A DNA stretch of 64,000 bases from Pseudomonadota bacterium (GTDB taxonomy: Bacteria; Pseudomonadota; Alphaproteobacteria; GCA-2731375), in assembly GCA_027623205.1 (NCBI GenBank), contig JAQBYC010000004.1:5810-69809 (forward strand), read 5' to 3'. Below are positions 3,848-57,475 of this stretch, one piece after another (within the stretch, counting starts at the first letter, position 1; each line of letters begins with the position of its first letter). Below the pieces are notes generated by a model that was not told the DNA's origin, did no database searches, and worked only from the letters and a program-made list of their open reading frames with translations. The translations under genes and the position numbers were made by a program.

Positions 3848-3893
3848 AAAAAAACCGCCTCAGCATTCTCAAGCGCAAGCTTTTGCTGGGCGG
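3848..3893 (-). terminator. Leader terminator hairpin in the metY 5' UTR, a putative riboswitch expression platform.
   Basis: On the minus strand: CCGCCCAGCA...UGCUGAGGCGG followed by U7 (the A-run at 3848-3854 on the plus strand). It lies between the SAM-II-like element and the metY start codon. Confidence 0.6.
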
Positions 3894-3905
3894 TGGGTAC
3901 CGACC

Positions 3906-3953
3906 GGTTTAGCTGCATTTTTTTAGCGCCCGCAAGCTGGCTCAAATCGGCGC
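3906..3953 (-). promoter_or_regulatory. SAM-II (SAM-alpha)-like riboswitch aptamer candidate upstream of metY.
   Basis: The minus-strand RNA reads GCGCCGAUUUGAGCCAGCUUGCGGGCGCUAAAAAAAUGCAGCUAAACC. The GCGCC/GGCGC stem encloses a loop containing GAUUU and AGCUUG. The 3' A-rich tract plus GCAGCUAAA could form a pseudoknot with the loop. This resembles the SAM-II consensus as I remember it, and the context (an alphaproteobacterial methionine gene) is canonical. Confidence 0.5.
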
Positions 3954-4020
3954 AAGAGGTACTCTAGAGGAATTCTCAGGAGCAAGTCAATAATGGATTT
4001 AAACATGCCTATATCTTTAT

Positions 4021-43429: not shown

Positions 43430-45357
43430 CTCTGCTCTACTCCATTCGAGGTATCGTTTTGCGCCGGTGCGGCAGCGTCGCCGTCTTCAACGCGATCATG
43501 AAGGGGGCGAATGTCGGTAACCTTAGCGCCGGGGAACGTATCCAGCACGGCCTTGACCAGCGGGTCGCCCTCGGTATCGGTCAATATATCAGCCTCGACC
43601 TGCCGCTGTTGCACGGCCAGGGGGGGCTGTCCAACAGCCTGGCTGTTGATCACGACGGCCCAGGTCTCACCGGTCCAGACTTCCAGCTTGCCGCGCAGTT
43701 TATTCGCCAGATCGGCTGGGGCATTGGCCCCGGGATGAATTTCGAGATGCCCTGGCCGGAACGCCACCAACCGGACATCCTCCATCAAGTGATGGTACAG
43801 GCGCCCATCGCGGGCTGCCTTGGCATGCTCGGCAATCGCCTCGAAACTAACGATGGTGACGGCCTGGAGGGCGGTCTCCGCCAGATCGGCTGACGCTGGG
43901 TCGGATGCAGCCCGCCCCGGCGCTTCTCCCGAAAATTCATAATCCTGTTGTTCCGGCATCGGCACCGGCATTTCGTCCGGCACCGCTAACGCCCGGGCGG
44001 CCACGCCGCGCCCAGTCTGGCGCCCCGGCAACGATGCTGACGCAGGCGCGCCAACCGGCGTGGGGGCCTGCCCGGGGGTAGCCTTGGCGTCCGTGGCGCC
44101 GGCCGCACCGGTAACTGCACGCACGGCATCGATGGGGGTTGGCAGGTCCGTGCTGTAGGCGAGGCGGATCAGGATCATTTCAGCGGCGGCCAGGGCCGAC
44201 GGCGCACCGCGAATCTCGCTCAATCCCTTCAAAAGCATCTGCCAGGTGCGCGCCAGAACAGGCATGGACAGGCCACTTGCCAGGGTCCTGGCCCGTTGCC
44301 GCTCCAACTCCGAAAGGCTGGGATCGGCGCCGGCCTCCGGCGCCACCTGCAAACGGGTCAGCAAATGGGTCAATGCCAACAGATCACGCAAAACCACTTC
44401 CGGATCGGCGCCCAGATCGTATTGTTCGCGCAATTGCCCCAAGGCCCCTGCCACGTCGCCGCGCATCAATTCCTCGAACAGATCATAAATCCGTACGCGG
44501 TCCGCCAGCCCCAGCATCTCGCGCACCTGCTGGGCCGTCACCCTGCCGCCACAATGGGCGATGGCCTGATCCAACAGGGATAGCCCGTCCCGCACGGAAC
44601 CTTCCGCCGCGCCAGCAATCAGGTTCAACGCCTCTGCTTCCGCAGTTGCTCCCTCCGCCTCGACAATGCCGCCGAAATGGGCCACCAGCAATTCCGCCCC
44701 CACCCGGCGCAGATCAAAGCGTTGACAGCGCGACAGCACGGTCACCGGCAGTTTGCGAATTTCCGTCGTGGCAAAGATGAACTTCACGTGCGACGGCGGC
44801 TCCTCCAGCGTCTTCAACAAGGCATTGAAGGCGGCCAGGGACAGCATGTGTACTTCATCGATGATATAGATCTTGAAGCGGGCCGAGGCGGGCAAATATC
44901 GCACACCCTCCAGCAGATCGCGCATATTATCAACGCCGGTACGCGACGCCGCATCCATTTCCAGCACATCCACATGCCGGGATTCGGCGATTGCCCTGCA
45001 ATGTTCGCAAACCCCACAAGGGTCGATGGTCGGGCCGCCCTGGCCATCGGCGCCGATGCAATTCAGCGACCGGGCAATGATCCGCGCCGTCGTCGTCTTG
45101 CCCACACCGCGAACGCCGGTCAGGATGAAGGCGTGCGCAATACGGTCTTCGCGAATGGCATTGGTGATGGTGCGGACCAAGGCATCCTGACCCACCAATT
45201 GGCTGAAATCCTGAGGCCGGTATTTGCGCGCCAGGACCCGATAGGCCGCATCGTCCGGCGGCCTGCCGCCAGTGCCTCTAGCGCCCGCGGGCGCCGCGCT
45301 ATCCACATCAATTTCGTTCATGGCCTCACTTGGAGCGGGTTTGGAACCTACGCTCAC
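43426..45357 (-). CDS. dnaX: DNA polymerase III subunits gamma/tau.
   Basis: [13 protein letters not shown]...[13 protein letters not shown] (Walker A), CGVCEHC zinc module, DEVHML and [11 protein letters not shown] at 45355-45357; the ATG at 45319-45321 is an alternative. Confidence 0.95.
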
Positions 45358-45410
45358 AGGTTAGCATGGCAGGGCAGCATTATAAATGGACTGCATCAAT
45401 TGTTATGAAG

Positions 45411-45510
45411 TGGAAGAACGGCCAACAACCCGGACCAAACTTGTTACGGCTGCTTCCTTTCGGACCTGACCGGATTGGCAAGAGGCCCGTCCGTAGCCGC
45501 CCTTCCGCCG
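45411..45510 (-). ncRNA. ffs: Signal recognition particle RNA (4.5S RNA).
   Basis: The minus strand contains the conserved domain IV core CCGGUCAGGUCCGAAAGGAAGCAGCC. It is flanked by pairing arms GGAAGGGCGGC...GCCGUUCUUCC. It sits in the canonical position immediately upstream of dnaX. The ends are approximate. Confidence 0.85.
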
Positions 45511-45632
45511 GCAATATCCGCTTTTGTCCGGTAATGTGCAAGCCGCTAATGCTCCCATTCGAAGGTCATGCAATTTGCCGCCCGTCACCTTGGGGCCACA
45601 GAGCGGGTGAGCGAGCCAATTGCCAAATTGGG

Positions 45633-46703
45633 CTATTCGCGTCCGCCTTCCACGGGACAATGCTGGGCGCGCCAGCGCAACATGCCGCCGGCCAGATTTG
45701 CGATCTCGGTGAAGCCGGCACGGCGCAGGATAACCGTCGCCTGGGCCGAACGCCCACCGGCCCGGCAGACGGCGATGATCGGTTGTTCCTTGTCCAGTTC
45801 CTCGGCGCGCCTGGCGAGATCGCCTAACGGTATCAGTTTGGCGCCCTGAATACGGCCCAACGGCCCGTCAAATTCGTCCTCTTCGCGCACATCCACGATC
45901 TGCGCCACGCCCAAGTTTTCCTCCAGCCACTGCGGCTGCACCTCCCAGATGCCGGCGAATGTGCAGGTCAGGCTGGCCCACGTCGGCTTATCATCTGGGA
46001 TATCGTCATCGTCGGGTCGGCCGCATTTCAAGTTCGCCGGCACCGCTATATCCATCTTCTTCGGATGGTCCAGACCCAGATTGTCCATGTAGCCGGCAAA
46101 ATCACTCTGACTCAATTGTCCGCCAAGACGCGGGTTGAAGGCTTTCTCCTCCGCCACGCTGGTTGCCGTCAGGCCGCGGTAGTCGTGACCCGGGTAAAGC
46201 AGGCAGTCGTCCGGCAAGGTGAATATCTGGGTATGAATTGAACGGTACATCTGCCCGGCATCGCCGCCCTGAAAATCGGTACGTCCGCATCCCCGGATCA
46301 GCAGGCAGTCACCAGTAAACGCCATCTTTTCCGTATCAAGCACAAATGTGAGACAGCCGGCGGTGTGACCGGGCGTGGCCCTGACGGTCAGGTAACGGTC
46401 ACCGAAATTGATCCTGTCGCCATGGACGAGGGGTTGATCAACCCCAACGGCACCACCATCCGCCGACTGCGCGATCTTGCTGCCGGCACTATTCCGCAGC
46501 AACCAGGCGCCGGTAACGTGATCGGCATGGACATGGGTTTCAAGCGTGTAGAGCAAGTTCAGGCCAAGTTCATTCAACAACGCGCCGTCGCGCCGGGCCT
46601 GCTCATAGACCGGATCGATCAGCACCGCTTCACCTGTCCCTGAATCGGCCAGCAAATAAGTATAAGTCGCCGATTGCGGATCAAATAGCTGACGAAATAG
46701 CAT
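45633..46703 (-). CDS. Persulfide dioxygenase (ETHE1-like MBL fold) fused to a C-terminal rhodanese domain.
   Basis: HVHADHVTG metallo-beta-lactamase motif at the N-terminus. The C-terminal rhodanese active-site loop is CRAGGRS. Confidence 0.8.
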   Translation of the reverse strand: MLFRQLFDPQSATYTYLLADSGTGEAVLIDPVYEQARRDGALLNELGLNLLYTLETHVHADHVTGAWLLRNSAGSKIAQSADGGAVGVDQPLVHGDRINFGDRYLTVRATPGHTAGCLTFVLDTEKMAFTGDCLLIRGCGRTDFQGGDAGQMYRSIHTQIFTLPDDCLLYPGHDYRGLTATSVAEEKAFNPRLGGQLSQSDFAGYMDNLGLDHPKKMDIAVPANLKCGRPDDDDIPDDKPTWASLTCTFAGIWEVQPQWLEENLGVAQIVDVREEDEFDGPLGRIQGAKLIPLGDLARRAEELDKEQPIIAVCRAGGRSAQATVILRRAGFTEIANLAGGMLRWRAQHCPVEGGRE

Positions 46704-47008
46704 GCGCTCGAACCCCCCTTACAGCTACATATTTTGATTGCAATCGTGGACCCAAGCCGGCCAACAAGCAACACGCATTTTTCTCAAAGCACCTGGCCTG
46801 GCGCCAAACTTTGCCCGCCAGAGTGGCGATGGCAGGGCGGCGATTTTTTCCTGAAACTGAAGGTAGGTGGTGGCAACCGCCACAATGCCGGTTTTTGCGT
46901 TGGGCTGAAACTCACATCCCGATGATGCAGCTGGGTTTGCCGAAGGGGCTGGCTTGTGGCACGCTCCGCGCCAACAGATAGCGTAGTTCAGAGAAAAGCG
47001 GACAGATT

Positions 47009-47935
47009 ATGGAGTTCATCAATACCTTTGCCGGCAGCCCCTTGAACCGAATGGGTAATGAGCGGCGAAACGCGGACTGGCTGCAACAACAAATGGACGA
47101 CCCGGAGAGCTGCTTTTTGCCCCTGTGGCAGTTGCGCGGCCTGATGCTGCCGGGGGATGAATTGCGTCTTGGCTGGTGCCGGCGGGCCGATGTGCAGCCA
47201 TTCATCGCTCAAGGCGCGACGGTTCTATTGCTGGGCCAGATCAATGGCCGTTCGCACTTCGCGGTGGATGTCTCCGCGGCCGGCCCGAAAAAGGCCGACG
47301 CGCCGCTGCAGGACTTCGGCAAATGGATCGATGTACGCAGCGCGGCAGCATCGTGCGGCCACGGCGACGCCGCCATCCTGGCGCAATCCCGTTCCATGCT
47401 GGACTGGCATGTCCGGCACGGCTTTTGCTCGGTCTGCGGCCAGCCCTCGAGCATGGGCGAGGCGGGCTATTCCCGCAAATGCAACGACGAGGCGTGCGGC
47501 GCCATGCATTTCCCGCGCACCGACCCGGTCACCATCATGCTGGTGCTGGATGGCGAGCGCTGCCTGTTGGGGCGGCAAAAGATCTTTGCCCCGAACAGCT
47601 ATTCCGCCCTGGCCGGCTTCATGGAACCAGGCGAAACCATGGAAGAAACCGTGCGCCGCGAAGTCTTTGAAGAGGCCGGCATTCGGGTCGGCGATGTGCG
47701 CTATATCTTTTCGCAACCCTGGCCCTTCCCCTCTTCATTGATGATGGGCTGCTTTGGCACGGCGGAAACCACCGAGATCAAAATCGATCCAGCCGAACTG
47801 GAAGAAGCCCGCTGGTTCAGCCGGGACGAGGTGGCGGACATGGTGCACAGCTGGCAGGACCAGACCAAGTTGCGCATGCCCGCCCCCCTGGCCATTGCCC
47901 ATCAACTGGCCCAGGCCTGGCTGCGCGGCGATTAG
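47009..47935 (+). CDS. nudC: NAD+ diphosphatase (NADH pyrophosphatase).
   Basis: Zinc ribbon CSVCG...CNDEACG, FPRTDP, NUDIX box GFMEPGETMEETVRREVFEEAGI and the downstream SQPWPFP motif typical of NudC. Confidence 0.85.
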   Translation: MEFINTFAGSPLNRMGNERRNADWLQQQMDDPESCFLPLWQLRGLMLPGDELRLGWCRRADVQPFIAQGATVLLLGQINGRSHFAVDVSAAGPKKADAPLQDFGKWIDVRSAAASCGHGDAAILAQSRSMLDWHVRHGFCSVCGQPSSMGEAGYSRKCNDEACGAMHFPRTDPVTIMLVLDGERCLLGRQKIFAPNSYSALAGFMEPGETMEETVRREVFEEAGIRVGDVRYIFSQPWPFPSSLMMGCFGTAETTEIKIDPAELEEARWFSRDEVADMVHSWQDQTKLRMPAPLAIAHQLAQAWLRGD

Positions 47936-48191
47936 AGGACTTTCGGACTAGACCTCATCAATACGTCTACCGCTGGATGCAGAAGTCATTGCTTGGAATA
48001 GTCAATGGTTCTAAGGTTCGCGCCACTGCGTCGCATAGCGAAAGCGTGTTTGAACGCTACCTAAAATATTGACCCCACGATGGGTGACAGCACTTGTATT
48101 TTGATGTTTTAATTTGGCGTGTGCTGCCTGTATTGGCAGCAATGTTGGGTCGATAGGACATACGGCATTGGATCTCAGGGAAGTGAGGTAG

Positions 48192-48515
48192 ATGACTGTG
48201 AAAAAATCGGATCGCAAAAGCCACCGCCAACTCATCAGGCATTTGATCACCGCTAAGTTGGCGGTTGGGGCTGCCTGTTTGGTTCTAAGCGCCACGGTCG
48301 CCCAAAAGGCGAGCGCGATAGCCGCGCCCGAAGAAGCCAAAATCTCGATCGCGGACCGGATTGAGGCCATTCGGTCAAGCCTCCGCACCCAAGGCGCCAA
48401 GGAGGGCGGGCCGTTGCACGCCCTGAAACAAGTGGCCCAATGGTACAATTGGCCGAACTGGCGAAATGGCTGGAACGACTGGCGGAACCAACGCTGGTTT
48501 AATTATCGGCGGTAA
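48192..48515 (+). CDS. Small secreted peptide with a C-terminal Trp-X-Asn repeat, a candidate RiPP precursor.
   Basis: 107 aa. Basic N-terminus, a hydrophobic core and AQKASA-IAAP (Sec signal-like), then an amphipathic middle. The tail is QWYNWPNWRNGWNDWRNQRWFNYRR (nt 48441-48512). It ends 28 nt upstream of a radical SAM/SPASM gene. Confidence 0.65.
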   Translation: MTVKKSDRKSHRQLIRHLITAKLAVGAACLVLSATVAQKASAIAAPEEAKISIADRIEAIRSSLRTQGAKEGGPLHALKQVAQWYNWPNWRNGWNDWRNQRWFNYRR

Positions 48516-48543
48516 CGCCACACGCATGACCGCCGACGGATGA

Positions 48544-49806
48544 ATGTGGCTCTATAAGTCCGTAGGCCCTGATCATGCGGCGCAAATGGACGTATCGGAG
48601 CCGCTGATGGAAAGGAATTCCTTGTCAAGTCATCAAGCGGATATATCTCCGGTGATTGATTTGCTGGTCATCCAGCCGACGCCCTTCTGCAATCTCGACT
48701 GCGACTATTGTTATTTGCCGAACCGGGGCGACAGGCGAAAAATCGATCCTGATACTCTGAGGCGGATCTTCAAGGCGGTGTTCGAAAGCGAATTCCTGGG
48801 GCGCCAATTGGGCATAGTTTGGCACGCCGGCGAACCAACCACGATGCCGATCGAGTTTTACCGCACTGCGTTCGCCCTTGCGGAACAATCAAAGCCGGAA
48901 GATCTGGCGCTTACCCACTCAATTCAAACCAATGCGGTGTTGATCGACCAGGCCTGGTGCGATTTCGTCCTGGAAACCGGCCTTCAGGTCGGCGTGAGTG
49001 TCGATGGCCCCGCGTTCCTGCACGATCGTCATCGAAAAACCCGGTCCGGCGCCGGTACCCATGCGCGGACGCTCCGCGGTATCAGACGATTGCAGGACAA
49101 CGGTATCGATTTTCATGCGATCTGCGTGCTGACGCGCGACTCCCTCGACTATCCCGACGAGATCTTCGACTTCTTCGCCGATAACAATATCGGACAGATC
49201 GGCTTCAACATCGATGAGATCGAGGGCGCAAATCATGACTCAACGTTGACCGGTGTCGGTACCGATACGCTGTTCAGACGTTTTCTGCGCCGTTTTCTCG
49301 ATCTGCTGAAACAGCATCCAGGAATTCTGAGCGTCCGCGAATTCGATGATACCATGTCAGCCATCGCCGCCGACGAAAATGCCGCTATCTATAATCATCA
49401 GGTCATGCCCTTCGGCATCGTCAGCGTCGATGCCGACGGCAATATCAGCACCTTTTCGCCGGAACTCCTGGGGCAGTCTTCCCGTACTTACGGAGACTTT
49501 GCTTTTGGCAACGTTCACCAAGGGGGGCTTGATGACGTGGAAAATAACGCCGCGTTTCAAAAGACGCGGCGGGAGATCAAGGCGGGACTCTCACGCTGCC
49601 GCGAAACATGTGATTATTACGGTGTCTGCGGCGGCGGCGCACCGTCCAACAAGTTCTTCGAACATGGCCGCTTCGACGAAACAGAGACGATGTATTGCCG
49701 CCTCACAAAAATGGCGGTAACGGATATTGTCATATCGGACATTGAAGCAGACCTCGCGCAGCATGCTGCCGAATTCGTCACGGCGGCCGGGGGTCAGCGC
49801 GCATGA
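48544..49806 (+). CDS. Radical SAM/SPASM-domain peptide maturase resembling AnSME and cyclophane-forming maturases.
   Basis: QPTPFCNLDCDYCYLPNR (CxxxCxxC at nt 48688-48711), WHAGEPT, and the C-terminal auxiliary-cluster region CRETCDYYGVCGGGAPSNKF...YCR. The ATG at 48607 (GGAG 6 nt upstream) may be the true start. Confidence 0.85.
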   Translation: MWLYKSVGPDHAAQMDVSEPLMERNSLSSHQADISPVIDLLVIQPTPFCNLDCDYCYLPNRGDRRKIDPDTLRRIFKAVFESEFLGRQLGIVWHAGEPTTMPIEFYRTAFALAEQSKPEDLALTHSIQTNAVLIDQAWCDFVLETGLQVGVSVDGPAFLHDRHRKTRSGAGTHARTLRGIRRLQDNGIDFHAICVLTRDSLDYPDEIFDFFADNNIGQIGFNIDEIEGANHDSTLTGVGTDTLFRRFLRRFLDLLKQHPGILSVREFDDTMSAIAADENAAIYNHQVMPFGIVSVDADGNISTFSPELLGQSSRTYGDFAFGNVHQGGLDDVENNAAFQKTRREIKAGLSRCRETCDYYGVCGGGAPSNKFFEHGRFDETETMYCRLTKMAVTDIVISDIEADLAQHAAEFVTAAGGQRA

Positions 49807-50558
49807 CAAGCATTCAGCCGGTTGATCCTGCAAAACCGACCGAACGCGGCGGCGGGGTAATTGTGCGGCCATTTTCACACTATGCCGGCCACTGGCGGGC
49901 CGAGCAAAAGTTGCGGGTACATTCCGGCGCGAAGCTGAAGATGCACGGCGATGCACCGCGCGATGACTGGCGCACGCCACGGGATGTTGAGTTATCGCGT
50001 TTGACAGGCGGTGATACCGATGGCGCCGATCTCTTGGTGGTCGAGGTTTTTACCTTCCCGAACCACCTTAGGAATGACTCTTGGGGTTTGAATTTGGATT
50101 CAGATCAGGTTTCCGCCGGTTCGGGCGTTTCGCAGGAATATCGGGCATTTGCGGCCCGCTTGCTGGAATACCTGGAATTCATCCGTGTGCCCGTCAACCG
50201 AACCTGCACAATTCGAGCAGAGATCTCGCGTCCAGGTGGTGGCCCGTCTTGGACTGCCGCCGGCCCGCCAGCAGGAGACAAAGTGGCGTCGGACGGTCGA
50301 CCGGTTGCGGAGTCAACCACCATAATGCTCAATTTTGGCTTCGAGCCGCGCGGCGTCGTGTGGGCCAATCAGGATCCGTCATGTCCGTGGGTGAGGCTTG
50401 CATTGGAACCGGGTGAAGCTTGCTTCGGCCCGTTTCGGCAAATGCAGCTGGTTCAGGATACCTTGGGGATGACGGAACCCGATTTCAACCTGATCGTCGA
50501 ACCATCCGAGTCCGAACAACACGCCAACAAAGACCTATGTGGTGTTTGTCATGACTGA
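49803..50558 (+). CDS. Hypothetical protein, operon partner of the radical SAM maturase.
   Basis: 251 aa. Its ATG overlaps the maturase stop (ATGA at 49803-49806). No motif I recognise. Confidence 0.55.
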   Translation: MTSIQPVDPAKPTERGGGVIVRPFSHYAGHWRAEQKLRVHSGAKLKMHGDAPRDDWRTPRDVELSRLTGGDTDGADLLVVEVFTFPNHLRNDSWGLNLDSDQVSAGSGVSQEYRAFAARLLEYLEFIRVPVNRTCTIRAEISRPGGGPSWTAAGPPAGDKVASDGRPVAESTTIMLNFGFEPRGVVWANQDPSCPWVRLALEPGEACFGPFRQMQLVQDTLGMTEPDFNLIVEPSESEQHANKDLCGVCHD

Positions 50559-53500
50559 CAATAATGAACCGACCCCGAATTCCGCGTCCGGCGCTGAAGG
50601 TCAGGCCAATGAAGCGCGAAGGTATTTTGGTGCTGTCCTATCCTGGAAAACCGCCAGCTTAGTGCTTTTCATCTTGATTATTGGCGTTGCTCTGGAAAGA
50701 ATATTTATAGTGTTCCCCAATATTTCAGTGCAACTCACCAATGAGCGCGATGGCGGCTTTATCCTGGTCGATAGTCCGGAGATATATTCCCGCGAACGTT
50801 TGTTGAACGATAGGCTTCGCCAACACGATTGGCTAATGGAGCTTCTGAAAAAAATGGACGATCTTAAGTTCGGAAGCCAGGCAACTATCGAACAAATGGA
50901 TAACAGCCAGTTCGGCGCTAATATTTCTGCCCGCGCAGGACCGTTGGTGGAAAATTCCGCGGGCGCCATCGCGCCCTTGACAACGGACACTAGATCTCCT
51001 GCGCAAGGAGTAGAGAATTCAGCGGCACCTGGCCGGCGCGAGGCCAACGGCGCAAGTTCGGGGAAGCCCACCGAAACAAATATCGAAAGATTTCGTAGCC
51101 GGCTGGCCTACCGGGAAGAAATACGGGCGGAGCTGTTGGAGACGCAACTCGATGACCGGCACGACATCAAAGGCAACACGCTTTACCGTCTGAAATTCGA
51201 CGTCACAGTCCTGCCGCAGGAAGGAAACGAAAACTGGGCATTTGTCGAGGTCAAGTTGAGTAATGACGACGAACCTGAGGACAATTTGGATGTCTATACC
51301 AGGTGGTTGAAAGACACGCAACAGCGACTAAATGACTATCTCTTTGAGCTGACGCAGGCGTTTTTCACCCGAACAGCGAAGCCGGAAGTGTTGCATGAGT
51401 TGGAAACTTTCATGCGTCAGAAAATTCCAGATGTTATTCTGGAGAGTGACTATTTCCAGAAAGAGCCATCTTCTTCACCGCCCGCTAAGCACCAAACGCA
51501 TTGCCGCGCCGAGACCATCAGCCGAAGATTGGATTGCTTGGACGGATTTTTTGAACGAGTTTTGAATGCGCCATATTCTGATCAGATATTTGGCAGGATC
51601 GAGGCCACGCTTGATGGCGGAACGGATCGAGAATTTGACTTCATGCGTGCGTTTATACTCGATTATATGCACACCGTTTATGGCAAATCGGACGACCCGT
51701 ATGTCGGGGGACATCAAAGCCCTGCTTACATTCGTTATGCGTCCTGGAGGACAGCGCTGAGCGAGGCGTCCCGCGCTATTCCTGCCGGCCATGATAATCT
51801 CAGCGCCCTGTTCGACGATCCGAATTCTGATTATAATGATCTGCTGAAGACACCCGATAGTTTGTCTCCCCATAAAATTCAGCAGTTATTGACCAATTTC
51901 AAGAAGGACAAGAATTTTTCTGCGATATATGATGCCTTCCAACTAACCGCTGACGCATTTGAATTGGAGCGGCACTTGATCCAGTCGGCAATTGCCGATT
52001 TCGTGGTCGAGAAATATCTTCACGTACACGCACTCAACCGATTTGCGCTACTTGTGAAGACCGGATGCGATGTTGGTTATTGCAACATCGCCATGAGCCC
52101 AAAATCAGGGTATTATACAAACGATTCAGGCCAATGTGCGGGGAAATACCGACCGCTAGGCGCCACCAATAGCAGCAGATGGGCGTGTCCCGATAGGGGC
52201 ATTGTCGCGGGTTTCTATCAAGCCTTGAAAAACGCGCCGGTTTATTCCTACGCCGTGAGCCCAAAGGAATCGATCCAACGGGTGGCGAATTTATCTTCCC
52301 ACGTTCAAGAATTGAACCTCGCGCTCAACACCGCCGCGAAGGTTTCGTCGTCTGCAAACATCGAAGGTCTAATTAGTCTTCTAAGGAGCGAACAAAAGCG
52401 CGTTCAATCAATCAAACGCCAGCCATTGATTGTTGGGTTCTCGGATCGTTATTTTGCCACGGGCAAATATTCTTACAACGGTTTGATAGAAAGGCCCCCC
52501 GCCGTGACTCATTTCGGTTGGTTGATCGGACCCAAGTTTGACATCGGCGAAAAGCCAACATTCCATCATGTCCCGATACAAAATGCGGTTGCCGCCGTGG
52601 TGTCTGTCCCGAGTTGGTGGAAGAGAGCGAAGATCGAGGTTGCTTCGTGCTTTGTCGCGCCAGCGCATACGACAATGCTTTTGACCAAATCCGATGCTGA
52701 GGGCTCTAAATCCATATGCGGACCAGAAAAAAAGGAAGCGGACACAAATTCAGGGACGGGGAAAAATACCACCGGCGACGCCAGCAAAGAAGCCAGACGA
52801 AACAAGCGGAATTTCGACTTCAAAATTCGTCTGCCGGGGCGGGCGGATGAAATCCCGCGCAAGATAGGCTACGCCGTGGGCCGCAGTCCGCGATTGACAT
52901 CACAAGGGTCACTCGGCGCGCTCTATGTGGGGCAAAAAGAGGCCAAGCTGTTGCTGTTCGGGATTGATCTTTGGCGCAGCACCGTTGTCACGGTCGGATC
53001 CCAGAAAGCTGACGGGATCGAGATTCTGCCGGACATGAAAGGTATCATTGCAAGGTTCGATGATGTGAAGGCGCCGCTGCGCTGGGGCATAGAGGGACGG
53101 GACGGTGCCCAACGTCGTGGAAATTTTTGCAAGGCGCATGCAGAACTTTTCGTATGGACGAGCGAGGGCAAAACCGAACCGCAAATAGTGACGATCTATC
53201 AGTCGAAAGAGGATTTCGAACGAGGCGGCTGCAAGAGAGATATTCAACCAGGAGAAACCGAACCTAGGAATATCCAGCCAGAAGCGCTAGCGCATTTGAG
53301 CGTTGGCACCAAAAATGCGGAGCTGCATATCGACGGTCGAAATTTGCAACAGGTCACCCATGTCACTTTGGGAAATCAGATCAGCAGCAAAACGACCCCG
53401 TTAGGTGGGGGCGGCATTATGGCAATGTTTGATGAAATCAAAAATCCGACGGATTGGCCAAACGGCCCGTCTTGGATGCGGGTTCCGGTCATGGTCTGGG

Positions 53501-53658
53501 GTCGTGACCGGAAATGGTCTCCTGGGTTCGCCTGTCTTTATCCGAAAGGGGTCAACCTTAAAGATGACACTGTGCCGCTGTGCCCATCCCACGGACCTCA
53601 ATCGGGCTTTAATAGCGGGCCGCCCGATAGTAACCGGCCCGCCTATCCAACCAAATGA
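50551..53658 (+). CDS. Large membrane-anchored hypothetical protein with a tandem C-terminal repeat.
   Basis: About 1035 aa. The ATG at 50551 overlaps the upstream TGA (50556-50558). One N-terminal TM helix (TASLVLFILIIGVAL). Two related segments of about 90 aa lie at nt 52909-53200 and 53287-53545. The ORF track start at 50539 is an alternative. Confidence 0.65.
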   Translation: MTDNNEPTPNSASGAEGQANEARRYFGAVLSWKTASLVLFILIIGVALERIFIVFPNISVQLTNERDGGFILVDSPEIYSRERLLNDRLRQHDWLMELLKKMDDLKFGSQATIEQMDNSQFGANISARAGPLVENSAGAIAPLTTDTRSPAQGVENSAAPGRREANGASSGKPTETNIERFRSRLAYREEIRAELLETQLDDRHDIKGNTLYRLKFDVTVLPQEGNENWAFVEVKLSNDDEPEDNLDVYTRWLKDTQQRLNDYLFELTQAFFTRTAKPEVLHELETFMRQKIPDVILESDYFQKEPSSSPPAKHQTHCRAETISRRLDCLDGFFERVLNAPYSDQIFGRIEATLDGGTDREFDFMRAFILDYMHTVYGKSDDPYVGGHQSPAYIRYASWRTALSEASRAIPAGHDNLSALFDDPNSDYNDLLKTPDSLSPHKIQQLLTNFKKDKNFSAIYDAFQLTADAFELERHLIQSAIADFVVEKYLHVHALNRFALLVKTGCDVGYCNIAMSPKSGYYTNDSGQCAGKYRPLGATNSSRWACPDRGIVAGFYQALKNAPVYSYAVSPKESIQRVANLSSHVQELNLALNTAAKVSSSANIEGLISLLRSEQKRVQSIKRQPLIVGFSDRYFATGKYSYNGLIERPPAVTHFGWLIGPKFDIGEKPTFHHVPIQNAVAAVVSVPSWWKRAKIEVASCFVAPAHTTMLLTKSDAEGSKSICGPEKKEADTNSGTGKNTTGDASKEARRNKRNFDFKIRLPGRADEIPRKIGYAVGRSPRLTSQGSLGALYVGQKEAKLLLFGIDLWRSTVVTVGSQKADGIEILPDMKGIIARFDDVKAPLRWGIEGRDGAQRRGNFCKAHAELFVWTSEGKTEPQIVTIYQSKEDFERGGCKRDIQPGETEPRNIQPEALAHLSVGTKNAELHIDGRNLQQVTHVTLGNQISSKTTPLGGGGIMAMFDEIKNPTDWPNGPSWMRVPVMVWGRDRKWSPGFACLYPKGVNLKDDTVPLCPSHGPQSGFNSGPPDSNRPAYPTK

Positions 53659-53796
53659 GTATCTGCGTTTCAGGGGCTGCGGCACGAAGTCATTGATCGG
53701 CCAGACCTTTTCATAGCCTCCACTGGGCGCAGAAATCAGGGGTTGGCGCAGGCAACTAATTCCAGGATGAGTGGCGCTTGAACGCAATTTCATTGA

Positions 53797-54708
53797 TCAA
53801 CCAAACAGCAGCAGGACCACGATGCTGCCCGCGACCAGGGCCATGCCGGACAGTTCCTTGGGCGTTGAACGTTCCTTGAAGAACAGCACCGACAGGCACA
53901 GGGTGAACAGCAGCTCCACCTGACCCAGCGCTTTGACATAGGCGGCGCGCTCGATGGTCATGGCCGTGAACCAGCCGGCGGAACCGATCACCGAGGTGAT
54001 GCCGACGAACAGGCAGCCGCGCCAGTTGGGCGCCATGACGGTGAATTGATCGCGGGCGCGCAGCAGCATATAGGCCGACATCACCGCCGTTTGGATCAAC
54101 AGCACCATGGCGAGCGTCAGGGCGGCGGCATAAAGCCAGTCATCCAGGCCCAGGGACAGGCTGGCCTGGCGCAGGAACAGCGAGGCCCCGGCAAAGCCCA
54201 GGCCCGCGGCCAGGCCAACGCCGGCGGCGGGCTGAAACAACCGCCGCAACAGGGTATCGCCGGCGATGCCGGTGCGGGCGAGATTGATCACCACCACGCC
54301 GACGGCGCCCAGGGCGATGGCGACCCAGCCGGCGCCGGCGATGGCCTCGTGAAAGACCGTCGCCCCCAACAACGCCGTCAACAGGGCTTCGGTGCGGGCA
54401 TAAGTGGAGCCGACGGCAAAGTTGCGCAGGGAAAAGAGGAATACCAGCAGGACAGTGGCGGCGATCTGGGAAAGGCCGCACAGGGCCGCAAAGACAAAAA
54501 ACGTCCAATCCGGCGACGGCAGCTGGTGGCCGCCCAGCTGCTTCAAGAACAACAGATAGACCAGCGCAAACGGCAGCCCCCACAGAAACCGCACATAGGA
54601 TGCGCCGACCGCGGAGAAATCCCTGGTCAAGTATTTCTGGCCCGCCGTCCGCGCCGCCTGCATGAAGGCCGCCAGAAAGGTGATCGGTATCCAGAGCCAG
54701 ACTTCCAT
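53797..54708 (-). CDS. DMT-superfamily (EamA-like) transporter.
   Basis: About 303 aa with 10 hydrophobic segments in two EamA-like halves. ATG at 54706-54708; the longer ORF track start would overlap the upstream gene. Confidence 0.75.
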   Translation of the reverse strand: MEVWLWIPITFLAAFMQAARTAGQKYLTRDFSAVGASYVRFLWGLPFALVYLLFLKQLGGHQLPSPDWTFFVFAALCGLSQIAATVLLVFLFSLRNFAVGSTYARTEALLTALLGATVFHEAIAGAGWVAIALGAVGVVVINLARTGIAGDTLLRRLFQPAAGVGLAAGLGFAGASLFLRQASLSLGLDDWLYAAALTLAMVLLIQTAVMSAYMLLRARDQFTVMAPNWRGCLFVGITSVIGSAGWFTAMTIERAAYVKALGQVELLFTLCLSVLFFKERSTPKELSGMALVAGSIVVLLLFG

Positions 54709-54734
54709 GAATTTGGCCGGTGCCTTTTTTTGCG

Positions 54735-55775
54735 TTAGGCCAAGGTCCGATACCAGGTATCGGACAGAGTATAGCCCTGCGGGAACGGGTCGTCGGGGTC
54801 CAGGGTATATTGATGGCTGCCGGTGATCCAGGCGCGGCCTTGCACGCTGGGTGATATGGCCGGCAAGCCGCCAACCTCGCACACGGAGTCGATCCGGCAC
54901 TGGAATTCCGTGCTCAGCACTGATTGACTGACCAGAATATCATCCAGTCCGATCTGTCCACGGCGATGCAGCACCGCCAGCCGGGCCGAGCTGCCCGTAC
55001 CGCAGGGGGAGCGGTCCAACTTGCCCGGCGAGATCACCACCGTATTGCGCCCGATTGTGCGGCCGGCGGCATCCCTGGTCAGAGGTGCGGCAAACTGCGT
55101 AAAGGTCACGGTATGAATGCCGGGATTTTCCGGGTGGCTGACCGGGTGTTGCGCCACCACCGCTGATTTTATGCGTTCGCCCATCTCCACCAGATCCCGC
55201 GCCTCGTCCGGCACCAGGGCAAAGCCCAGGCCCGGTGCATCGAAAATGGCAAAGAAGGCGCCGCCATAGGCGATGTCACAGGTCAGACTACCCAGGCCCG
55301 CAACCTCGACAATCGCCTCCAACTTGGCCACGAAACAGGGAACATTGCGGATACGCACATTCCGGCAACGGCCGTCGCGGCAATCCGCCACCACCTGGAT
55401 CAAGCCGCCGGGGGTATCCAGCGCCAGCACGGTCTCGGGCCCGCGCATGGCCACCATGCCGGTTTCCAGCAATACCGTGGCCACGCAGATGGCATTGGAA
55501 CCGGACATGGCCGGATAATCCGTTGGCTCCATGATGATGAAACCCGCATCCGCACCCGGCGTTTTGGGCGGCACCACCAGATTGGTGTGGACAAAAGCCC
55601 CACCCCGCGGTTCGTACAACAGAAACTTGCGCAGACCGTCAGCCTGGGTGCGCAAATATTCCCGTTGTGCGAACAGGCTGTCCCCAGGCGGCGGCAACAC
55701 GCCGCCGGTAATCACCCGGCCCACCTCGCCCTCGGCATGGCAGCCGATCACCGTGATGGTGCGGGCCGATTGCAC
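54735..55775 (-). CDS. Proline racemase superfamily enzyme (hydroxyproline epimerase/dehydratase-like) with a Ser/Cys catalytic pair.
   Basis: VIGCHAEGEVGRVITGG...YEPRGG...MSGSNAI...DRSPCGTGSSA. The GTG start at 55773-55775 is 3 nt from the pheA stop (the ORF has no internal ATG before the conserved N-terminus). Confidence 0.8.
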   Translation of the reverse strand: MQSARTITVIGCHAEGEVGRVITGGVLPPPGDSLFAQREYLRTQADGLRKFLLYEPRGGAFVHTNLVVPPKTPGADAGFIIMEPTDYPAMSGSNAICVATVLLETGMVAMRGPETVLALDTPGGLIQVVADCRDGRCRNVRIRNVPCFVAKLEAIVEVAGLGSLTCDIAYGGAFFAIFDAPGLGFALVPDEARDLVEMGERIKSAVVAQHPVSHPENPGIHTVTFTQFAAPLTRDAAGRTIGRNTVVISPGKLDRSPCGTGSSARLAVLHRRGQIGLDDILVSQSVLSTEFQCRIDSVCEVGGLPAISPSVQGRAWITGSHQYTLDPDDPFPQGYTLSDTWYRTLA

Positions 55776-55777
55776 CC

Positions 55778-56695
55778 CTAGGCCTTCACATGCGGTGCTT
55801 CGTAGTCGGCCCGTTTGGACTGGCGGAAGGGATGACGCGGATAGGTGCCCAGAATTTGCAGCCGGGTGCAAAAGAACTGCGCCTCTTCCAGCGCCCATGC
55901 CACCCGCTGATCCTCCGGATGCCCCTCAAAATCAGCATAAAACTGCGCCTGTTCGAAGCTGCCCGGTTCGATATAGCTTTCCAGTTTGGTAATATTGATG
56001 CCCGTGGTGGCGAAACCGCCCAGGGATTTGTACAGCGACGCCGGTACGCTGCGGACCTGAAAAACGATGGTCGTCATGGCATCGCCATCCTTGGGATGAG
56101 GGGTAATTCGCTCCCGCGCCAGAATGATGAAACGGGTGACGTTGTTGCCCATGTCCTGGACGTTCTCGCGCAGAATTTGCAGATCATAAATTTCCGCGGC
56201 CAGGGAAGAGCCAAGGGCCGCCAAGGAATTGTCGCCCTTCTCCGCCACCATCTGGCAGGCGCCGGCGGTATCGGCATGCACCACCGGCTCGATCCCCAGT
56301 TCACGGATCAGATTACGGCATTGGGGCAGGGCATGGATATGGCTGTGGACCTCGCGGATATCTTCCAGTTTGGCGCCCCGAGGGGCCATCAACTGGTGGT
56401 TCACGGCCTGGAAATGCTCGCCCACGATATACTGATCCGAGGTCGGTATCAGATGATGAATATCGGCTACCCGCCCGGCCAGGGAGTTCTCGATTGGGAT
56501 CATGGCGCGCCCCGCCTTGCCTTCATTCACAGCGGCAAAGGCATCTTCGAAGGTGCGGCATGGCAGGGGCGTGTAATCGGGCAGGCCTTCCAGACAGGCG
56601 AGGTGGGAATAGGCGCCGAACTGGCCCTGAAAGGCCACGTTCCTGCGTGGATCCTCCCCCTCGCTCGTGCCGTTCGAAACTGTCTTATCGGCCAT
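55778..56695 (-). CDS. pheA: Prephenate dehydratase with a C-terminal ACT domain.
   Basis: VAFQGQFGAYSHLA...IPIENSLAGRV...TRF(I)IL..., followed by the ACT region IVFQVRSVPASLYKSLGGFA and ESYI. Confidence 0.9.
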   Translation of the reverse strand: MADKTVSNGTSEGEDPRRNVAFQGQFGAYSHLACLEGLPDYTPLPCRTFEDAFAAVNEGKAGRAMIPIENSLAGRVADIHHLIPTSDQYIVGEHFQAVNHQLMAPRGAKLEDIREVHSHIHALPQCRNLIRELGIEPVVHADTAGACQMVAEKGDNSLAALGSSLAAEIYDLQILRENVQDMGNNVTRFIILARERITPHPKDGDAMTTIVFQVRSVPASLYKSLGGFATTGINITKLESYIEPGSFEQAQFYADFEGHPEDQRVAWALEEAQFFCTRLQILGTYPRHPFRQSKRADYEAPHVKA

Positions 56696-56737
56696 GGCGG
56701 CTCGCCCTAATTAATTGAATAACCTTGTAATTCCGGA

Positions 56738-57475
56738 TCATCGCGCCAGAGCGCGGCGCGCCCGGTCCAGATCGGCAGGAGTATCGACACCGAAGGGAAC
56801 CCTGTCAACGAGGCCCACCTGGATCCACATGCCGGCCTCAAGGGCGCGCAACTGCTCCAATCTCTCACGCTGTTCCAAATGGCCGCGCGGCAAGGCGATA
56901 AAGCGCGCCAGGGCGGCCCGGCGATAGCCGTAGATGCCAATATGATGGTACAGCGGCCCCGGACCCGACGGCGCGGCCACCCGGGTAAAATAAAGTCCCC
57001 GGCCCTGGCGGCCGCCTGGCGGCAACGATATCACGGCCTTTACCACGCTGGGTGCTTCGCGTTCGTAATCCTCGACAATTTCCGCCGCCAGGGTGGAAAT
57101 ATCGACCTCCCTCTCGGCCAAAAGGGCCAGGGTCAGACGGATCTGCTCCGGTTCCATGGTGGGCAGATCGCCTTGCAGGTTGACGACAACGTCATGACGC
57201 CCGTCCGGATCGACGCGTTGTACCGCCTCCCACACACGGTCCGAGCCCGATGGATGTGCCGGATCTGTCAGCACCGCCCGGCCACCGGCAGCCTCGATCA
57301 CCTCGACGATTTCCGGCTCGGCGCAGGCCACCAGAACCGGGCCGATATCAGCCTCCATCGCCCGGCGCCAGACATGCACGATCATCGCTTGGCCATGGAT
57401 ATCCGCCAACGGTTTGTCCGGCAGCCGGACCGACGCCAGACGCGCCGGAATAACCACAAGTGCCCGCTGTTTCAT
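56738..57475 (-). CDS. kdsB: 3-deoxy-manno-octulosonate cytidylyltransferase (CMP-KDO synthetase).
   Basis: VVIPARLASVRLPDKPLADIHGQAMIVHV...NLQGDLP...HIGIYGYRR. ATG at 57473-57475. Confidence 0.9.
   Translation of the reverse strand: MKQRALVVIPARLASVRLPDKPLADIHGQAMIVHVWRRAMEADIGPVLVACAEPEIVEVIEAAGGRAVLTDPAHPSGSDRVWEAVQRVDPDGRHDVVVNLQGDLPTMEPEQIRLTLALLAEREVDISTLAAEIVEDYEREAPSVVKAVISLPPGGRQGRGLYFTRVAAPSGPGPLYHHIGIYGYRRAALARFIALPRGHLEQRERLEQLRALEAGMWIQVGLVDRVPFGVDTPADLDRARRALAR

Follow-up and report, generated by a model that had tools for sequence, protein, structure and literature searches.

What becomes of a short peptide crowded with Trp-x-Asn motifs when it is encoded directly upstream of a radical S-adenosylmethionine (SAM) enzyme and two further proteins, and is such a system new? 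The question is raised by a block of four genes at positions 48192-53658 of a 64,000-nucleotide (nt) stretch of DNA, hereafter the window, from a Pseudomonadota bacterium of the alphaproteobacterial lineage GCA-2731375 (GenBank assembly GCA_027623205.1, contig JAQBYC010000004.1, positions 5,810 to 69,809 of the forward strand). An earlier reading of the locus (the original prediction) had put it forward as a candidate undescribed cyclophane-type system for a peptide that is made on the ribosome and modified after translation (RiPP). We report here that the maturase belongs to the named GrrM/OscB family, and that the chemistry of the locus can be predicted from that known family. The novelty lies with the accessory proteins: the two uncharacterised companion genes are recurring partners of GrrM-type maturases in many bacteria.

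The maturase is a GrrM/OscB enzyme

The maturase gene (48544-49806, plus strand) is a 420-aa open reading frame (ORF) that contains FCNLDCDYCY and, towards its end, CRETCDYYGVCGGG...YCR. Its product scores 480.3 bits (E 3.5e-144) against the NCBIfam model TIGR04261 (GrrM/OscB), above the cutoff of 310, with maturase residues 43-401 aligned to profile positions 1-362 of 363, and it matches the radical SAM domain PF04055 at E 1.3e-19. More than 5,000 database clusters match the maturase at E <1e-30, and relatives about 50% identical to it are called, where NCBI has named them, GrrM/OscB or "GRRM system radical SAM/SPASM domain protein". As the enzyme passes the cutoff of a named family, has close relatives that bear that name, and belongs to a group for which OscB chemistry has been reported (PMC11002830), the system cannot be called undescribed.

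Other radical SAM maturases that install cyclophanes or ethers on aromatic side chains at short motifs in ribosomal peptides (XyeB/XncB, FxsB/MscB, YhhB, AmcB, DarE and DynA) are detectable homologues, but the window maturase falls below every one of their cutoffs: 322 bits versus 425 for AmcB, 168 versus 450 for DynA, 145 versus 445 for YhhB, 124 versus 650 for DarE, 120 versus 370 for FxsB and 87 versus 450 for XyeB.

The radical SAM motif CX3CX2C is formed by C49, C53 and C56, and four further cysteines (C352, C356, C362 and C385) lie near the C terminus. A Cys-rich auxiliary-cluster region had been noted there; it is present, but with four cysteines against the canonical seven, and the Pfam SPASM model (PF13186) gives 17.1 bits, below its threshold of 21.5. 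All seven cysteines of the enzyme are kept in 18 of 18 aligned family members, NCBI-named GrrM/OscB proteins included, so the reduced C-terminal set is a trait of the family and not a peculiarity of the window gene. In the window maturase (residues 352-385, positions 49597-49698) and 17 homologues the C-terminal cysteines follow the pattern CX3CX5C...C, which is enough for one auxiliary cluster despite the 'SPASM' in the family name.

Anaerobic sulfatase-maturating enzymes (anSME) are related radical SAM enzymes with a full SPASM domain and two auxiliary clusters, and they carry out formylglycine chemistry on signal-peptide-bearing, Sec- or Tat-exported substrates before export. Could the window enzyme be one of these, or another maturase that makes no cyclophanes, with the Trp-rich ORF beside it by chance? 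General similarity to the anSME model TIGR03942 is clear (E 1.6e-49), but the score is 168.9 bits against a cutoff of 349.45, while the GrrM/OscB cutoff is passed; moreover, no sulfatase gene lies nearby, and a W-x-N peptide gene is kept upstream of the maturase gene in more than 30 loci. As far as sequence evidence goes this explanation is refuted, and we regard it as extremely improbable; the separation from anSME that the original prediction called for is thus borne out. What the two would share is modification in the cytoplasm before export, as proposed below for the window peptide. They would differ in product (formylglycine versus C-C cyclophanes), and they differ in the region of the auxiliary clusters (two clusters in anSME versus four C-terminal cysteines here).

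OscB is reported to link Trp-C7 to the β-carbon of Asn or Asp, and Phe-C4 to the β-carbon of Asn, between residues i and i+2 (review, PMC11002830). By analogy, the Trp-x-Asn repeats of the window peptide are probably stapled into small rings by the maturase, and we consider it highly likely, from what is known of the family, that the peptide and the radical SAM enzyme carry out cyclophane chemistry of the kind proposed. The family score and the W-x-N/D motifs both uphold the original pairing of the small ORF with the radical SAM gene as precursor and maturase of the three-residue-cyclophane type.

A Gly-poor relative of GrrA/OscA1 with a predicted signal peptide

The precursor gene (48192-48515, plus strand, with a GAGG ribosome-binding site upstream of its ATG) appears in the ORF list as 107 aa ending in QWYNWPNWRNGWNDWRNQRWFNYRR. 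Six W-x-N/D motifs fall within its last 25 residues, and no other of the 538 window ORFs of at least 40 aa has more than one W-x-[ND] in any stretch of 25 residues. Residues 1-42 (48192-48317, plus strand) resemble a Sec signal peptide, with a basic N-region, the hydrophobic core LAVGAACLVLSATVA and an A-x-A site (KASA followed by IA). Residues 43-82 (48318-48437, plus strand) form a leader region with the conserved helix motif ADRIEAIRSSL, in which R56 is invariant, and residues 83-107 (48438-48512, plus strand) form the core, which opens with Q83-W84-x-N86, runs through WYN, WPN, WRN, WND, WRN and WFN and ends in YRR. The core holds six Trp, six Asn and one Gly in 25 residues; this Gly (Gly93, in WRN-G-WND) is kept in a metagenome-assembled genome (MAG) in which the whole locus is syntenic. 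As is characteristic of triceptides, aromatic-X-X motifs (the six W-x-N/D and YRR) are encoded 28-91 nt upstream of a GrrM-family gene.

Conservation of the small ORF in homologous loci, on which its standing as a precursor depended, is evident: small ORFs of the same architecture lie upstream of GrrM-like genes in more than 30 other loci. We aligned 24 of them. R56, Q83, W84, N86 and N99 do not vary in any of the 24, and every one has a basic N terminus, a hydrophobic core followed by a small-x-small site, a helix with the invariant Arg, and an invariant Q-W-x-N with which a series of (W/F)-x-N motifs begins at the very C terminus. We suggest that the conserved leader helix is the element recognised by the maturase. 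In a Pyrinomonadaceae MAG (locus L090, 2798-10175), a GrrM gene and a precursor with 11 WxN motifs are followed by genes for TIR-domain and nSTAND/WD40 proteins, and by neither accessory gene of the window locus.

The GrrA/OscA1 precursor model TIGR04260 aligns with residues 27-105 of the window peptide; the score, 23.5 bits (E 6.5e-5), does not reach the cutoff of 31. The model gives E <0.01 for six of the 24 homologous precursors. The Sec-like N-terminal feature falls inside the stretch aligned to the model. In common with GrrA/OscA1, the window peptide has an N-terminal hydrophobic segment, a leader and W-x-N/D motifs of the sort that OscB reportedly cross-links; its core, however, is a compact, Gly-poor W-x-N run and not the Gly-rich repetitive C terminus that marks the family (the model is named 'Cyano_gly_rpt'). 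On account of the score below cutoff and the Gly-poor core, we treat the precursor as a relative of GrrA/OscA1 and not as a member. At the level of the whole system, the window locus is like the known GrrM/OscB and GrrA/OscA1 systems in having a maturase that is a member by curated score, with the four C-terminal cysteines found family-wide, and unlike them in having an alphaproteobacterial and not a cyanobacterial host and two extra conserved genes.

The N terminus of the precursor looks like a Sec signal peptide, with a hydropathy maximum of 2.24 (15-residue window from residue 23), and we think it fairly likely that the peptide would leave the cytoplasm by the Sec route, with cleavage predicted at the A-x-A site. 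The missing leader peptidase and ABC exporter had been taken as the sign of a new pathway. A Sec signal peptide would explain their absence more simply, as neither would be needed, and would require that modification precede export.

The hydrophobic segment could instead be an uncleaved anchor, so that the peptide is never released, shows its stapled, Trp-rich tail on the periplasmic side of the inner membrane and forms a two-part complex there with the 1035-aa protein encoded downstream. The N-region is long and basic and the hydrophobic stretch covers about 20 residues; the peptide and the 1035-aa protein each carry one N-terminal hydrophobic helix; and the block has no leader peptidase gene. 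Yet essentially all homologues have small-x-small sites after the hydrophobic core, as in cleaved signal peptides, and the cores are nearer to signal-peptide than to transmembrane-helix length. We therefore judge anchoring unlikely and retain a cleaved Sec signal peptide as the preferred reading.

A co-evolving, membrane-anchored 1035-aa protein

The last gene of the block (ATG at 50551, end at 53658, plus strand; a GTG start at 50539 would give 1039 aa) encodes a 1035-aa protein that has no match in Pfam, NCBIfam, PADLOC, PHROGs or the PDB sequences, a PDB sequence-profile search included. It was thought to be an orphan, and it is not: a word-indexed protein search returned 49 relatives, and a scan of one genome per species found at least 131, from which 80 loci were fetched. 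These come from Alpha-, Beta- and Gammaproteobacteria, Acidobacteriota, Planctomycetota, Verrucomicrobiota and Binatia.

Linkage of this family to WxN peptides was among the checks proposed with the original prediction, and it holds for a portion of the family. A WxN peptide gene, a GrrM-like gene and the large-protein gene follow one another directly in 29 of the 80 loci, while about 50 of the 80 contain no radical SAM gene. In the 29 linked loci the GrrM-like proteins are 38-50% identical to the window maturase and the large proteins 27-50% identical to the window protein; the hosts are Alpha-, Beta- and Gammaproteobacteria and one Phycisphaeraceae (Planctomycetota) MAG. Metagenome contigs and a Rhodospirillales MAG share this gene order. 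Cultured carriers of the module include Paracoccus halophilus JCM 14014, Elioraea rosea PF-30, Elioraea thermophila YIM 72297 and Xanthobacter sp. KR7-65. No relative of the large protein was found in the plasmid collection, and the loci examined showed no recurring signalling, transport or other neighbour of the three-gene module. Genes with adenylate/guanylate cyclase domains lie within a few kb of GrrM modules at three unrelated loci (L004, 5153-5956 and 15469-17718; L088, 10065-11363; L089, 8792-11947).

A neighbour-joining tree of 73 family members places the radical-SAM-linked copies together and the unlinked copies in a separate clade. Three loci scored as unlinked (L003, L012 and L017) stand among the linked copies; two of them are cut by a contig end upstream, and the third has no radical SAM match in the 2.3 kb available upstream. 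A pair of cysteines, C700 and C723, is conserved in the linked group only. This agreement between phylogeny and linkage shows the large protein to be a recurrent, co-evolving partner of the WxN peptide and its GrrM-type maturase.

One transmembrane helix is predicted at about residues 34-55 (50650-50715, plus strand), where the top hydropathy windows, at residues 34-38, reach 2.74 and the AlphaFold (AF2) model has a helix at 34-54; R23, R24 and K33 lie on its N-terminal side. The same model (predicted local distance difference test score, pLDDT, 65; predicted TM-score, pTM, 0.60) continues with a long helical region and small β-sheets and then, from about residue 750, β-sandwiches. This tandem of IPT/TIG-like and Ig-like sandwiches spans about residues 750-1000 (52798-53550, plus strand), with β-strands at 753-997. 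Foldseek matched the C terminus only, to SGBP-B (6E57), the IPT domains of MET (6GCU), protocadherins and viral IPT/TIG proteins; probabilities to tandem Ig/IPT proteins reached 1.0 at query-normalised TM-scores below 0.1. For the N-terminal two-thirds, helical and β, Foldseek found nothing. The Pfam TIG domain (PF01833) was matched weakly (E 0.002) in two of 28 relatives, and not in the window protein.

IPT-type domains are extracytoplasmic as a rule. Together with the basic residues before the helix and the cysteine pair of the linked group, they suggest, by the positive-inside rule, that the N terminus is in the cytoplasm and the bulk of the protein in the periplasm. Conserved motifs of the family include VDSPE.YSRERL.NDR, LDDRHD..GNTLYRLKFD, FGW.IGPK, SVPSWW and LWRSTVV; none matches a known catalytic signature.

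What lies beside the large-protein gene where no radical SAM gene is present? By crude detection, about nine of the 50 such loci have a small ORF with a signal-peptide-like N terminus and 3-10 Cys directly upstream on the same strand (L013, 5456-5773; L026, 5534-5848; L029, 5537-5887; L038, 5693-6004; L053, 5604-5858; L064, 5501-5797; L068, 5526-5804; L075, 5259-5546; L085, 5509-5775), and these Cys-bearing ORFs may be a parallel to the WxN peptide. In Glaciecola sp. SC05 (L007, 6475-7815) a subtilisin-like (Peptidase_S8) gene stands directly upstream of the large-protein homologue in a locus that is likewise free of radical SAM genes, and in Ca. Uabimicrobium amorphum (L046, 928-5661) three tandem genes group by BLAST with that Glaciecola Peptidase_S8 gene.

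A MicC-like protein follows the maturase gene

The third gene (49803-50558, plus strand), whose start overlaps the maturase stop (ATGA), encodes a 251-aa protein with no match in Pfam, NCBIfam, PADLOC or PHROGs. It too had been called an orphan. A word-indexed search gave one relative and seemed to agree, but an exhaustive HMMER search overturned this result with 58 representative relatives, which prove to be near-obligate neighbours of GrrM genes and distant kin of MicC.

A profile built from a 38-sequence alignment of these relatives (A4) matches a single PDB entry, chain A of 9VKM, which is the α-ketoglutarate-dependent non-heme iron oxygenase MicC, at E 7.4e-15, with profile positions 17-239 aligned to chain residues 32-290; the match rests on the profile and not on the window protein alone. 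MicC cleaves the N-Cα bond of a Gly to leave a C-terminal amide in the cluster for the triceptide minviopeptin, and H160, D162, H253, R188 and K266 are each essential to it (PMC12912966). Aligned with MicC at about 20% identity, the window protein has no counterpart of the triad H160/D162/H253, the HxD segment being deleted and the distal His replaced by Leu or Gln; it retains the equivalent of R188 (R183), has Asn at the position of K266, and shares an NLG motif with MicC. The family profile thus shows the 251-aa protein to be homologous to MicC, and in the alignment its metal ligands are absent.

Like MicC, which the profile matches over almost its whole length, the 251-aa protein is encoded beside a radical SAM gene of the three-residue-cyclophane kind. 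The two differ, beyond the absence of the triad and of K266, in their partners, as the window radical SAM enzyme is of GrrM type and that of MicC is the darobactin-related MicB. They differ also in their hosts: Guo et al. describe MicC homologues beside radical SAM genes in Actinomycetota and Bacteroidota, and the 251-aa family occurs in Proteobacteria and soil metagenome taxa.

When metagenomes were scanned with a subset of 12 family sequences, 42 loci were obtained. Thirty-three of these have the end of a GrrM-like gene just upstream, and eight of the other nine are cut by a contig end; the family member hence directly follows a GrrM-like gene in 33 of 34 informative metagenome loci, as well as in L089 and L024. 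The neighbourhood test proposed for this protein came out in favour of the association. The precursors at these loci are of a related type, LAWW(R/G)NW...NGGW...WHNWPNWRNW. None of the 42 loci encodes a large protein of the 1035-aa type, so that GrrM systems have two distinct accessory modules, the large protein being one and the 251-aa family the other. Both occur together in the window, in the syntenic Alphaproteobacteria MAG, in one metagenome locus that a contig end truncates and, as an independent case, in a Rhodospirillaceae MAG.

Is the 251-aa protein nonetheless an active tailoring enzyme, one that might hydroxylate Asn or Asp or cut oxidatively at Gly93, so that the product would not be a plain triceptide? 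Its kinship with a Gly N-Cα cleaver from a triceptide pathway invites the idea, as do the retained R183, which matches the α-ketoglutarate-binding R188 of MicC, the one core Gly conserved in the syntenic MAG, and the full iron triad in two of the 38 family members. However, the window protein has lost the HxD segment, the distal His and the match to K266, 36 of the 38 relatives likewise have no full triad, and replacement of any one triad residue by Ala abolishes the activity of MicC (PMC12912966). We consider an active enzyme quite unlikely, and prefer to regard the 251-aa protein as a non-catalytic homologue of MicC. It is presumably cytoplasmic, since it has no hydrophobic segment (hydropathy maximum 0.74).

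The four genes form one operon

All four ORFs lie on the same strand, packed tightly or overlapping, and the ORF list and the sequence bear out their coordinates and both overlaps as first described: ATGA at 49803-49806 joins the maturase stop to the 251-aa start, and the ATG of the 1035-aa gene at 50551 overlaps the TGA of the 251-aa gene at 50556-50558. That they constitute one unit is supported. The 28-nt gap reported between peptide and maturase genes holds for the longest ORF only. Gene callers, here and in the syntenic MAG, place the maturase start at ATG 48607, which gives 399 aa and a gap of 91 nt; with GGAG 8 nt upstream, this ATG has a better ribosome-binding site than the start at 48544, and it is the likely start. 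A scan for promoters and terminators found no more sites than in shuffled sequence.

The lower GC content noted for the block is real. In 500-nt windows over 48000-53500 it is 0.49-0.59, against about 0.58-0.67 in most flanking windows (one falls to 0.55). The block is bordered by nudC (NUDIX-like, with Zn ribbon and NUDIX domains) and a convergent EamA/drug-metabolite transporter (DMT) gene, and the ORFs of 45000-57000 include no mobility genes, as had also been described; neither an integrase nor a repeat or tRNA was noted at the block borders. In a related Alphaproteobacteria MAG (L001) the whole block is syntenic at 57-79% protein identity and sits at the same nudC/EamA junction, so that if the low-GC block was acquired horizontally, the acquisition predates the split of the two lineages.

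Such a block raises the possibility that both downstream genes are passengers of the same AT-rich insertion, unrelated to the peptide. The 1035-aa family is often found without any radical SAM gene, and neither protein has a recognisable function. On the other hand, start and stop codons overlap, the genes remain neighbours even where identity has fallen to about 27-30% (in 29 genomic loci in the case of the large protein and in 33 metagenome loci in that of the 251-aa family), and the radical-SAM-linked large proteins form a grouping of their own. The passenger explanation is accordingly very unlikely, and we continue to read the downstream genes as partners of the peptide.

Elsewhere in the window, a bacterial small signal recognition particle (SRP) RNA (RF00169, 56.8 bits) lies at 45410-45505 on the minus strand, between dnaX and a metallo-β-lactamase/rhodanese gene, and a SAM_alpha riboswitch (RF00521, 38.2 bits versus a gathering score of 36) lies at 3888-3963, also on the minus strand; the riboswitch agrees with an origin of the window in Alphaproteobacteria.

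Proposed mechanism

On balance, and with confidence somewhat above an even chance for the scheme as a whole, we favour the view that the locus is a proteobacterial variant of the GrrM/OscB triceptide RiPP system and would work in four steps. First, the radical SAM enzyme would recognise the leader helix of the 107-aa precursor in the cytoplasm and, at every one of the six W-x-N/D motifs, join the Trp to the β-carbon of residue i+2, giving six rings at -2 Da each, with the terminal Y-R-R as a possible seventh site. Second, the stapled peptide would be exported across the inner membrane by Sec, and signal peptidase I would cut after KASA. Third, the 1035-aa protein, anchored by its one N-terminal helix with its bulk and IPT/Ig-like domains in the periplasm, would act as a dedicated extracytoplasmic partner that binds, holds or processes the exported peptide at the cell envelope. 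Fourth, the 251-aa protein, with a MicC-like fold from which the iron site has been lost, would most likely bind the precursor around the time of maturase action, as a helper without catalytic function, and not act as an oxygenase. For the 1035-aa protein it is the association that the data establish, and for the 251-aa protein the association, the homology and the loss of the iron site; the roles worded here are tentative.

Several points weigh against this scheme. Cross-links, export and cleavage are all read from sequence. The precursor scores below the GrrA/OscA1 cutoff (23.5 versus 31) and is not Gly-rich, so the regiochemistry of OscB may not carry over exactly. Its basic N-region is unusually long (22 residues), which leaves room for a hydrophobic segment that is an uncleaved membrane anchor. 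The 1035-aa family does without any radical SAM gene in about 50 of 80 loci, so that a cyclophane peptide is no requirement of its core function, and no fold or motif points to what that function is, in a model whose quality is medium (pLDDT 65). That the 251-aa protein is non-catalytic is read from an alignment at 20-30% identity, and the structure model of that protein, from a two-sequence alignment, has a pLDDT of 28.

Significance

With six consecutive Trp-Asn cyclophanes packed into 25 residues, the predicted product would represent its scaffold in dense form. In the literature, where GrrM/OscB family members have been studied as enzymes, we found nothing on the role of their peptides in the cells that make them. 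Nor did we find a description of either accessory protein in GrrM clusters in the literature reached, outside which the primary OscB papers lie, and a prior mention is possible. A co-evolving, membrane-anchored partner with a phylogenetic grouping of its own points to a function at the cell envelope, and a widespread MicC-like family that has no iron site and is tied to GrrM genes offers a second lead.

We would go further only as speculation, and with considerable doubt. GrrA-type stapled peptides may here be endogenous periplasmic ligands or building blocks for the co-evolving IPT-domain protein, and not secreted antibiotics; the unlinked branch of that family may pair with small, secreted, disulfide-rich peptides; and the triad-less MicC-like proteins may be pseudo-enzymes that act as chaperones of the precursor until Sec exports it. 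If this is true, stapled peptides and IPT proteins would together make up a class of envelope peptide/partner systems that had not been recognised before. Through the conserved partners themselves, the biology of a very large RiPP family becomes accessible to tests.

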